Below are positions 19,990 to 63,756 of a stretch of DNA of 64,000 bases, in pieces. How positions within the stretch are numbered: the first letter of the stretch is position 1; every line of letters starts with the position of its first letter. The translations under genes were made by a program, and so were the position numbers. The DNA is taken from IMG/VR virus record IMGVR_UViG_3300035228_001078; one strand, 5' to 3'. The notes beneath the pieces were generated by a model that saw nothing but the letters and a program-made list of their open reading frames with translations, did no database searches and was not told where the DNA came from. The DNA comes from a virus.

Positions 19990-20155
19990 AATATTCTACT
20001 GGATCATCAAGGTTTTCGCGCTTATCTTGTTGATATGCTTCTTTATCGGAAAATACTTCAGATTCTAATTCCAGAACCAGGGCTTTCATGGTCAAGACTA
20101 GACCCTTTAAAACTTGTCTATCCATCAGAATAATAAGGTTTTGTCTATTATACAC
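19955..20155 (-). CDS. hypothetical protein (start probably MDRQV at 20125)
   Basis: LESEVFSD..AY and acidic C-terminus DDDGYPD. Confidence 0.7.
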   Translation of the reverse strand: MYNRQNLIILMDRQVLKGLVLTMKALVLELESEVFSDKEAYQQDKRENLDDPVEYFGEGDDDGYPD

Positions 20156-20175
20156 AAAAAAGGGGTCCCCGTCAA
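20147..20175 (-). promoter_or_regulatory. sigma70-type promoter overlapping a terminator
   Basis: TTGACG-N17-TATAAT. Confidence 0.75.
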
Positions 20176-20184
20176 GGAACCCCC
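20156..20184 (-). terminator. intrinsic terminator after the DUF4278 gene
   Basis: GGGGTTCC-TTGACGG-GGACCCC hairpin followed by TTTTTT. Confidence 0.75.
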
Positions 20185-20203: not shown

Positions 20204-20371
20204 TCACTTAGTATAAGAACGACCACGATAACAGAATGTACCGTGGGCTTCCTTACTCTCAACACAACGAGTAGAATACTCAACACCACGATATGAGGTG
20301 TGAAGAATTTGTGCGTTGTGAACAGCAGATGCTTTGTTGATCTGCTTACGAATGAGGTTAAGTGTGTTCAT
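20204..20371 (-). CDS. DUF4278-like small protein, 55 aa (not in ORF track)
   Basis: MNTLNLIRKQINKASAVHNAQILHTSYRGVEYSTRCVESKEAHGTFCYRGRSYTK; two YRG motifs; AGGAG RBS. Confidence 0.8.
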   Translation of the reverse strand: MNTLNLIRKQINKASAVHNAQILHTSYRGVEYSTRCVESKEAHGTFCYRGRSYTK

Positions 20372-20404: not shown

Positions 20405-20584
20405 CCGTTCCTTTAGTCGTTTGCGTCCCAATAGCAATCAGGAGATGACTCCTTCATGACCTCAATCAATTCTACCTTGAAAGCATCTGGGATGTTCTCA
20501 TTTGCTTTCATCCGAAACATAATCGCATCGGCTTGTTGGCAGGTGAGTGATGAATATAAAAGAAATTCAATCATGGGATGAACG
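20405..20584 (-). ncRNA. second glutamine-II aptamer, split by an ORF in its P2 loop
   Basis: 5' half CGTTCATCCCA (20584-20574) and 3' half TGGGACGCAAACGACTAAAGGAACGG (20430-20405) mirror the first aptamer. Confidence 0.65.
20413..20574 (-). CDS. 53-aa hypothetical protein nested in the riboswitch aptamer
   Basis: MIEFLLYSSLTCQQADAIMFRMKANENIPDAFKVELIEVMKESSPDCYWDAND; the ORF-track start at 20649 lies upstream of the predicted TSS. Confidence 0.7.
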   Translation of the reverse strand: MIEFLLYSSLTCQQADAIMFRMKANENIPDAFKVELIEVMKESSPDCYWDAND

Positions 20585-20587
20585 ACT

Positions 20588-20626
20588 CCGTTCCGCGACT
20601 TACTTGCGTCCCCGAAGGGATGAACG
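20588..20626 (-). ncRNA. glutamine-II (Downstream-peptide) riboswitch aptamer
   Basis: CGTTCA-TCCC-TTCG-GGGA-CGCAAGTAAGTCGC-GGAACGG; P1 CGTTC/GAACG; upstream of a DUF4278 gene. Confidence 0.8.
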
Positions 20627-20635
20627 ACAGGTCTT

Positions 20636-20664
20636 ATTATAGACCTCATACTCTATTTAGTCAA
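20636..20664 (-). promoter_or_regulatory. sigma70 promoter with an embedded late-promoter-like CTAAATA, driving the riboswitch leader
   Basis: TTGACT-N17-TATAAT; CTAAATA overlaps the -35 box. Confidence 0.8.
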
Positions 20665-45786: not shown

Positions 45787-45892
45787 TAAGATCATCAGGG
45801 AAATGATGGTTTTACTATTCCTGTCTCACCCTTAGAGGCAGGTATGAAAGACTGTTTTTTAGACACGCTGTTTAGTCTTGGTAAGGCGTGTT
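45787..45892 (-). ncRNA. structured psbA leader, PhotoRC-II-like RNA motif
   Basis: ACACGC..GCGTGT stem enclosing AAGACT complementary to downstream AGTCTT; CCTG..CAGG and CATCA..TGATG stems; directly 5' of psbA. Confidence 0.65.
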
Positions 45893-45934
45893 ACGAACCG
45901 TTAAGGAATGTGTTGGTTCCTTAACCTCTCGACT

Positions 45935-61158: not shown

Positions 61159-61230
61159 TGGGAGATACAAGGATCGAACTTGTGACAATCTCGGTGTAAA
61201 CGAGGTGCTCTACCGCTGAGCTAATCTCCC
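61159..61230 (-). tRNA. tRNA-Val(TAC)
   Basis: GGGAGAT TAGCTCAG..., anticodon loop TTTACAC, T-loop GTTCGA, acceptor stem pairs; no encoded CCA. Confidence 0.92.
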
Positions 61231-63608: not shown

Positions 63609-63680
63609 AGCCTCTGACAAGATTTGAACTTGCGACCTGAGCTTTACAAAAGCCCTGCTCTACCACTGAGCTACGGAGGC
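63609..63680 (-). tRNA. tRNA-Thr(TGT)
   Basis: GCCTCCG TAGCTCAGTGGTAGAGC, anticodon loop TTTGTAA, GTTCAAAT. Confidence 0.92.
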
Positions 63681-63682
63681 AA

Positions 63683-63756
63683 CGATTCAGGCTGGACTCG
63701 AACCAGCGACCAACGCTTTAGAAGAGCGATGCTCTATTCCACTGAGCTACTGAACC
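63683..63756 (-). tRNA. tRNA-Arg(TCT)
   Basis: GGTTCAG TAGCTCAGTGGAATAGAGC, anticodon loop CTTCTAA, GTTCGAGTCC. Confidence 0.92.

Follow-up and report, generated by a model that had tools for sequence, protein, structure and literature searches.

Two classes of glutamine riboswitch are known, and both raise translation of DUF4278/IF17-type genes with rising glutamine (PMC6212724, PMC6698751). Their occurrence in tandem and their link to DUF4278 are already established (PMC2864571, PMC6212724). Glutamine riboswitches in T4-like cyanophages have been mentioned before (PMC9964418), and McCown et al. 2017 (PMC5473149), who counted only two glutamine aptamers among cyanophage genomes, concluded that riboswitch use by phages is rare. 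Here we describe a leader on the minus strand of IMG/VR virus record IMGVR_UViG_3300035228_001078, a stretch of 64,000 nucleotides (nt) that we call the window, in which two halves of a glutamine aptamer flank a complete open reading frame (ORF) and a DUF4278-like gene follows. The best overall explanation, which we favour with moderate confidence, is that a composite, two-core glutamine riboswitch leads an early two-gene transcript.

The type-1 glutamine riboswitch (glnA RNA, RF01739, including the gifB (IF17) leader of Synechocystis; Klahn et al. 2018, PMC6212724) has a P1 helix CGUUC:GAACG that the phage leader probably forms as well, and shares with the leader a hairpin after a conserved A, the junction ACG-N-AAGUA, a P3 helix followed by [G/A]AAG-GAACG, and a DUF4278/IF17-like gene downstream. 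In the phage, P3 appears to enclose not a small hairpin but a second, permuted set of aptamer nucleotides and, in most phages, a gene as well; a P2-like helix also surrounds the 3' GGAACGG, and the window is unscorable by the type-1 model. The glutamine-II riboswitch (Downstream-peptide motif, RF01704; PMC6698751) has in common with the phage leader CGUUCA, a hairpin and CGCA, with GGAACGG in a P2 loop that reaches the ribosome-binding site. In marine picocyanobacteria it works as an ON switch in front of short DUF4278 peptides. The phage differs in its much longer P2 loop, in two cores that appear to share one helix in a single RNA and in a hairpin loop that is a gene.

The tandem glycine riboswitch and tandem glnA RNAs (Weinberg et al. 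2010, PMC2864571) also carry two aptamers for the same ligand, in contact, in one leader. The phage leader departs from these in having one core inside the helix of the other, with strands apparently exchanged. To our knowledge, no tandem riboswitch carries an ORF inside an aptamer. Group I and group II introns, with their homing-endonuclease or maturase ORFs, and tmRNA are structured RNAs that do host ORFs in peripheral loops. There, as here, a long-range helix closes around coding sequence, so that translation and folding interfere; those RNAs are ribozymes or a rescue RNA rather than ligand sensors, and none has its ORF as one of a pair of regulated outputs. In leader-peptide attenuation of the trp operon type, the position of the ribosome on a short ORF decides the RNA fold, as it would in the model proposed below. 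The attenuator ORF is itself the sensor, without a product of its own or a small-molecule aptamer, whereas the phage ORF encodes a conserved protein inside the aptamer. A literature search found no paper describing a gene inside an aptamer or an interlocked layout.

Layout and recurrence of the leader

The original prediction placed a first aptamer copy at 20626-20588 (CGTTCA, TCCC-TTCG-GGGA, CGCAAGTAAGTCGC, GGAACGG), and on re-reading the sequence is exact. The second copy begins 3 nt later with CGTTCA-TCCCA (20584-20574), is interrupted by a 143-nt interval (20573-20431) and resumes as TGGGA-CGCAAACGACTAAA-GGAACGG (20430-20405). As predicted, the A of the ATG of a nested ORF of 53 amino acids (aa) is position 20574, the last base of the 5' stem strand, and the TAA (20415-20413) lies in the 3' half. 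We call the two CGUUCA strands alpha1 and alpha2 and the two GGAACGG strands beta1 and beta2. The elements are as follows, in order of transcription.

20636-20664, minus strand: sigma-70-type promoter, TTGACT-17-TATAAT, 11 of 12 consensus matches
20621-20626, minus strand: alpha1, CGUUCA, probable 5' strand of the outer P1 helix, present in 141/141 aligned loci
20609-20620, minus strand: P1a hairpin UCCC-UUCG-GGGA (P2 of the type-1 model)
20601-20608, minus strand: junction strand 1, CGCAAGUA, nearly invariant, placed by Rfam alignments
20596-20600, minus strand: P3 5' strand AGUCG, where Rfam puts type-1 P3; its partner is CGACU at 20419-20415
20588-20594, minus strand: beta1, GGAACGG
20587-20585, minus strand: linker AGU, which together with beta1 gives GGAG (20589-20586)
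20579-20584, minus strand: alpha2, the second CGUUCA
20574-20578, minus strand: P1b 5' strand UCCCA, whose last A is the A of the nested AUG
20413-20574, minus strand: nested ORF, 53 aa plus TAA (phrog_504, T4-GC_430, Syn9 gp197 family)
20426-20430, minus strand: P1b 3' strand UGGGA, a Trp codon and the first bases of an Asp codon
20420-20425, minus strand: junction strand 2, CGCAAA, within the last ORF codons
20415-20419, minus strand: P3 3' strand CGACU, whose U is the first base of the stop codon
20411-20416, minus strand: P2 5' strand CUAAAG, holding the stop UAA and overlapping P3 by 2 nt
20405-20411, minus strand: beta2, GGAACGG, probable 3' strand of the outer P1 helix
20387-20382, minus strand: P2 3' strand CUUUAG, overlapping the Shine-Dalgarno sequence (SD) GGAG (20382-20379) of the DUF4278-like gene
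20204-20371, minus strand: DUF4278-like gene, 55 aa (phrog_545, T4-GC_937, Syn9 gp198 family)
20152-20184, minus strand: intrinsic terminator-like hairpin with a T run, closing a unit of about 480 nt

This layout is more than chance: 100 shuffles give an expectation of 0.00 for the pattern GGGACGCA-N8-14-GGAACGG, whereas the 64-kb window has two matches, which are the two copies and no others. By blastn, 429 GenBank cyanophage records match the region, nearly all of them Synechococcus myoviruses of the family Kyanoviridae. The DUF4278-like protein is found in 371 records and the nested protein in 309; at least 339 IMG/VR stretches also encode the latter. The same flanks were present in all 80 IMG/VR loci fetched via the ORF protein alone, and pattern scans supplied extra loci chosen independently of the ORF. 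The resulting collection comprises 305 distinct parsed cyanophage loci, with an alignment (A1) of 141 distinct sequences. A pattern scan of host genome contigs was too loose to inform and gave only chance matches, in unrelated bacteria, with no full aptamer.

Across the 305 loci the loop of the second hairpin holds an ORF of 49-98 aa in 255 and is a plain hairpin in 49. The prediction that the halves flanking the ORF make up one glutamine-aptamer core is borne out by these relatives, which join the same halves through a short hairpin. Synechococcus phage Bellamy is the named example of an ORF-less form: alpha1-P1a-beta1 is followed by a 3-nt linker, alpha2-UCCC-UUCG-GGGA, the same 3' half and then directly the DUF4278 gene.

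The transcript start is predicted 2-4 nt 5' of the first CGUUCA, and a terminator was found upstream of the promoter. In the window the -10 box sits at the centre of an imperfect inverted repeat, GGTCTATAATAAGACC; many relatives carry the perfect form, GGTCTATAATAGACC. The repeat around the -10 box at 20630-20645 (minus strand) reads GGTCTATAAT(A)AGACC and is similar in most related loci. Promoter-plus-stem-loop cassettes flank shuffled small genes in T4-type phages, and the -10-box repeat recalls them; it could be a recombination or regulator site.

The stem around the nested gene and the occupants of the loops

P1b, the stem that closes around the nested gene, pairs across 143 nt. In the 141 sequences 97.3% of its cells are paired and three of its five pairs show compensatory changes; one pair is CG in 111 sequences, UA in 20, UG in 6, GC in 3 and another combination in 1. 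The two halves therefore covary across relatives, as the original prediction had expected. When only ORF loci are considered, all 21 AGGA 3' strands face UCCU with no C-A mismatch; the source of the AGGA is a Lys, Gln or Glu codon or a TAG stop. The GGGA 3' strand, which comes from the Trp codon, faces UCCC or the wobble-compatible UCCU, UCUC and UUCC.

The 3' half is under constraint at the RNA level, judging by its synonymous sites and its conservation outside coding sequence. The last five codons of the ORF have a mean pairwise synonymous diversity of 0.017, about 27-fold lower than the 0.454 of its core; these figures come from loci picked by protein, since picking by the 3'-half pattern would be circular. 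In S-T4-type loci the ORF ends at a TAG within the stem, and the remaining 3' half is non-coding yet identical. The CGCAAA junction strand is kept where it is non-coding, in S-T4-type and in ORF-less loci.

The nested ORF is also a protein-coding gene in its own right. Judged from a ratio of non-synonymous to synonymous polymorphism (pN/pS) of 0.28 in its core, its assignment to phrog_504 and lengths that change in steps of three across loci, it is a real gene whose protein is under purifying selection. The protein is predicted to be small and three-helical, with two invariant Cys residues (mean predicted local distance difference test, pLDDT, 78). It matched no Pfam family, only unnamed look-alikes in the Atlas and no fold in the PDB. 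The nested proteins of different loci fall into phrog_504 (the window), phrog_13397 (S-PRM1-type) and, for the S-T4 type, no PHROG, and pairwise likeness between the types is weak. Single-linkage BLAST clustering had put almost every nested ORF in a single family; this was rejected because PHROGs and pairwise BLAST show no clear homology, and the types are possibly distant relatives.

The first hairpin can be occupied too. In Syn9 (DQ149023.2, locus L083:121-345) and S-SCSM2R (locus L088:118-345) the P1a loop also holds a gene, gp196 (66 aa, phrog_6471), so that both sensor hairpins are genes in these phages. The AUG of gp196 comes after CGUUCA-UCUC and its TGA stop falls within UGAGA, the 3' strand of the stem; the transcript starts about 10 nt 5' of CGUUCA-UCUC-AUG. 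All four combinations of occupied and unoccupied P1a and P1b loops occur.

The linker between beta1 and alpha2 holds, in L155 (~1-728) and L207, a gene whose C-terminus resembles a homing-endonuclease DNA-binding tail, and in L176 a remnant of about 70 nt from the 3' end of a homing-endonuclease-like gene. These insertions imply that the linker loop tolerates large insertions. A deletion or fusion variant from IMG/VR (L195) has one CGUUCA and one 3' half around a 326-nt loop, which contains a gp196-like ORF and then the tail of an S-T4-type ORF.

Variety of this kind would be expected if the loops were simply tolerant sites and the halves recombination anchors, with small genes swapped in and out without a regulatory link. 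We regard this as unlikely. It would account for the ORF-less forms (49/305), for at least four protein families in the loops with weak mutual likeness (phrog_504, phrog_13397, phrog_6471 and one without a PHROG), for the four occupancy combinations, for the homing-endonuclease-like gene or remnant in the linker of some loci and for the reassortment of the 5' module with the ORF module. It sits poorly with the fixed register of gene and stem. The AUG lies exactly 4 nt past CGUUCA in 210/255 ORF loci, the spacer between stem and AUG is zero in more than 95% of loci, and the stop is always in the stem or the junction strand, falling within GACU[A/G]A in 237/255. The stem takes in one or more AUG bases in 225/255 ORF loci and all three in 90/255. 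The GGAG made up by beta1 and the linker is present in 164/255 ORF loci and in none of the 49 ORF-less loci. Moreover, reading the ORF requires melting of P1b, P3 and the P2 5' strand, so some interplay between translation and folding is physically unavoidable.

Pairing of the two cores

Alpha1 is complementary to both GGAACG copies, and its distal pairing, with beta2, is kept in all 141 loci (100% paired), where it is invariant. The four strands could thus pair as neighbours (alpha1:beta1 and alpha2:beta2) or in a nested fashion (alpha1:beta2 around beta1:alpha2). In 23 of the 141 distinct sequences beta1 is GCAACGG, alpha2 is then always CGUUGA, and no intermediate appears in any set. This GC-to-CG double change preserves beta1:alpha2, which is 99.6% paired overall, and breaks the top pair of both alpha1:beta1 and alpha2:beta2. 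The double-changed state is found on many ORF and downstream backgrounds, with at least 14 changes on the ORF tree, and has therefore persisted.

The junction strands point the same way. AGUCG, after AAGUA, is complementary to CGACU, which precedes [A/G]AAG-GGAACG, and both are invariant in the family of the window. In the S-SSM7-like family both P3 strands are 3 nt longer and variable, and they covary in sequence and in length. Over 27 distinct combinations of the junction strands (J1/J2), 79% of P3 positions pair. Shuffling gives 68.5 +/- 1.6%, with none of 500 shuffles attaining 79%, and moving the register gives 11-36%. One of the P3 pairs is UA in 12, AU in 6 and GC in 3. In 30 ORF-less elements P3 is 85% paired, with one pair AU in 8, UA in 8, GC in 1 and UG in 1. 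P1a also covaries, with compensatory changes in 4/4 pairs and 88-99.5% of cells paired. Unguided RNAalifold folding of the ORF-less set places alpha1:beta2 outside and P1a, beta1:alpha2 and P1b inside, and RNAfold includes alpha1:beta2 and P1b in the minimum-energy structure of the 264-nt leader of the window. For the unvarying alpha1:beta2 helix the support is indirect, coming from the beta1/alpha2 double change and these two fold predictions.

The original prediction had also pointed to an alternative fold between AGTCGTT and AACGACT. The pairing is present in the window and is used by RNAfold. We rejected it as a conserved feature, since it needs a linker T carried by only 4/164 loci of the window's family; the conserved partner of CGACT is the AGTCG at 20600-20596.

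Covariance models do miss the split aptamer, as the original prediction had anticipated. At Rfam gathering thresholds the window yields only three tRNAs (61159-61230, 63609-63680 and 63683-63756, minus strand) and a PhotoRC-II RNA (45807-45903, minus strand, 57.6 bits). In permissive mode alpha1-beta1 of the window scores 25.5 bits with RF01739 and 20 bits with RF01704, and the split copy is unseen. Because of the 143-nt ORF, the full outer core in the window lies beyond the span of RF01739. Bellamy is a natural loop deletion: its joined second copy, alpha2-beta2, scores 34.5 bits with RF01739 (cut-off 35) and 27.1 bits with RF01704. Six ORF-less relatives (L181, L104, L152, L099, L136 and L314) pass the cut-off of 35, with 40.2-46.8 bits for RF01739 over 86-97 nt. 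In this alignment the element runs from the first CGUUCA to the last GGAACG, P1 is alpha1:beta2, the P2 of the model is P1a, and P3 extends from AGU to ACU, the whole inner core being treated as an insertion of 38 nt.

The original prediction read the leader as a tandem riboswitch. Two copies are present, so that part stands; the independence of the two aptamers does not, as the evidence favours P3 enclosing a permuted second core. Were the element a simple tandem, alpha1:beta1 and alpha2:beta2 would each bind glutamine independently, with additive or cooperative effects on the DUF4278 gene, and the second aptamer would merely have a long loop. Each neighbouring pair resembles a compact aptamer and is matched alone by Rfam, at scores under or close to the cut-off, as in the window (alpha1-beta1) and in Bellamy (alpha2-beta2), and some relatives reach 33.2-40.1 bits with RF01704 over alpha1-beta1. 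P2 encloses beta2 as in glutamine-II, and tandem glnA RNAs are on record (PMC2864571). We nevertheless consider this arrangement improbable. The double change in 23 sequences breaks the top pair of both tandem helices and spares beta1:alpha2 and alpha1:beta2; the junction strands covary with each other, a pairing for which independent aptamers have no need; and RF01739 scores best across alpha1 to beta2.

The favoured arrangement, drawn from these patterns of pairing and alignment, is a type-1 glutamine riboswitch that brings together the first CGUUCA and the last GGAACG and whose P3 would enclose a second, circularly permuted core. The inner core would consist of beta1, the linker, alpha2, P1b and CGCAAA, share P3 with the outer core and carry the ORF in its hairpin. 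Such strand exchange is physically reasonable, because two RNA pieces together make a working glutamine-II aptamer, and in the crystal this aptamer formed a strand-swapped dimer (Huang et al. 2019, PMC6698751). The parts, their conservation, the four covarying helices and the nested pairing scheme are all computational results, and we hold the architecture as described to be very probable.

Whether such a leader still senses its ligand is a separate matter. The halves might be a relic, no longer binding glutamine and kept for coding, mRNA stability or processing sites. The absence of any gathering-score Rfam match in the window would fit, as would a C in place of the consensus G in ACGGAAGUA. 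Junction strand 1 agrees with the type-1 consensus, CGGAAGUA, at all but one base. A relic would not be expected to keep all the ligand-site positions given in the crystal-structure paper (PMC6698751) near-invariant in hundreds of divergent loci, to hold synonymous sites frozen and sequence conserved where it is non-coding, or to have ORF-less relatives that pass the curated Rfam cut-off. We therefore think a relic very improbable, and the leader quite probably binds glutamine.

The downstream gene and the proposed switch

The predicted DUF4278-like gene downstream is present. Its protein (55 aa, phrog_545) matches Pfam DUF4278 (PF14105) over residues 25-53 with 21.1 bits and an E value of 4e-4, below the cut-off of 25.3, and YRG repeats are visible in it. 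On this match the gene is DUF4278-like only. It is related to the IF17-like peptides of hosts, in keeping with the described DUF4278/IF17 link (PMC6212724).

In the helix P2, CU[A/G]AAG pairs with CUU[U/C]AG; beta2 lies in the loop of P2, and its 3' strand reaches into GGAG, the SD of the DUF4278-like gene. P2 covaries strikingly: in the stop codon of the nested ORF (UAA/UGA), the middle base changes in step with a base 30 nt downstream, beside the SD (GC 57, AU 48, GU 30). P2 overlaps the P3 3' strand by two nt and is placed like P2 of glutamine-II.

The position of the stop codon raises the prospect of positive coupling. A ribosome terminating at U[A/G]A in the P2 5' strand might free the SD 30 nt downstream, in which case translation of the nested ORF would switch the DUF4278 gene on, alongside or instead of glutamine. 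The covarying middle base of a stop codon within P2 is in line with such a scheme, and so is a stop position that is fixed in 237/255 loci. ORF-less loci, however, keep P2 and the downstream gene, so that P2 works there without a terminating ribosome, and 11 loci have an ORF whose stop precedes the junction strand. Coupling of this kind thus strikes us as rather unlikely.

We prefer a switch built on the composite riboswitch, in which glutamine binding, the direction of each output and ribosome competition are what we infer. The outer core would form a type-1 (glnA-type) aptamer, and at high glutamine the bound fold would lock the SD-like GGAG of the nested gene, its spacer (alpha2) and its AUG in helices. 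With its initiation region engaged in this way, the nested gene should be repressed by glutamine. The same bound fold would, by analogy, open translation of the IF17-like DUF4278 peptide; the downstream gene is expected to be ON with glutamine because both known classes are ON switches. Conversely, for a ribosome to read the nested gene, the 3' strand of P1b, junction strand 2, the P3 helix and the 5' strand of P2 would have to open, and translation would in this way reset or unfold both sensor cores. The 3' half leaves the polymerase about 160 nt later than the 5' half, so ribosomes could load early. Opposite outputs under ribosome gating seem to us somewhat short of an even prospect. The specific cycle, with the nested gene off and the IF17-like peptide on at high glutamine and ribosomes keeping both cores unfolded at low glutamine, is a tentative model that we would not yet favour over its negation.

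Several points count against the composite riboswitch or against the switch built on it. The covariation of P1b tracks ORF subfamilies, with Trp, Lys, Gln or stop codons in the 3' strand, and because the changes follow these subfamilies the independent events are few. The four alpha and beta strands are almost invariant, so nested and tandem pairing are told apart by one double change. Its sites are 5-9 nt apart; it may have arisen just once, and could have spread as one linked unit or through hairpin-templated mutation. Two A-C mismatches recur in P3 of the S-SSM7-like family, the fold of the window leader has a z-score of only -1.59, and no glutamine model reaches its cut-off in the window (RF01739, 35 bits; RF01704, 33 bits). 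GGAG was set aside as a universal SD of the nested ORF, being missing from 91/255 ORF loci, and is kept as a lead. P2 could be an OFF-state SD trap or, as in glutamine-II, an integral aptamer helix; given the latter possibility, the ON logic for the downstream gene is by analogy only. Ribosomes may also load first, so that the sensor rarely closes.

Other elements accompany the leader in the window or in relatives. An extra covarying hairpin lies between beta2 and the SD in L087, L083, L084, L085, L217 and others, flanked by AACGGAUCC and GAGAAGGUU, with stems such as CACC-GAAA-GGUG and CUGC-UACG-GCAG. In several S-SSM7-like loci a manA RNA (RF01745, 168-189 bits) is found a few hundred nt 3' of the glutamine element (L243:586-780, L314:1299-1496 and L303:4460-4657); L314 has a further Glutamine match at 1194-1242, and a group I intron and a PhotoRC-II RNA are present in L181. 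An NtcA box is unsupported: the sole candidate, a one-mismatch GTT-N8-TAC at 20686-20673, lies about 50 nt before the predicted start, and the density of one-mismatch NtcA-like sites in the window is near chance (328 versus 271 expected).

If the proposed switch is correct, the leader would be the first riboswitch to have a gene under its own control inside the aptamer. From the geometry, a coding gene within the aptamer hairpin should force sensing and translation to compete on one molecule, which would make the leader a testable model of ribosome-gated folding, and the two interlocked cores recall, on one RNA molecule, the strand-swapped dimer of the glutamine-II crystal. The sensor hidden by its internal gene appears in several hundred cyanomyophage records, compared with the two aptamers of McCown et al. 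(PMC5473149). Cyanophages would then sense the nitrogen status of their hosts by riboswitch far more often than model searches have suggested. An early phage transcript would be tied to the host glutamine pool and to peptides related to glutamine-synthetase inactivating factors, with a bearing on the way in which ocean phages read, and perhaps reset, the nitrogen metabolism of their hosts.

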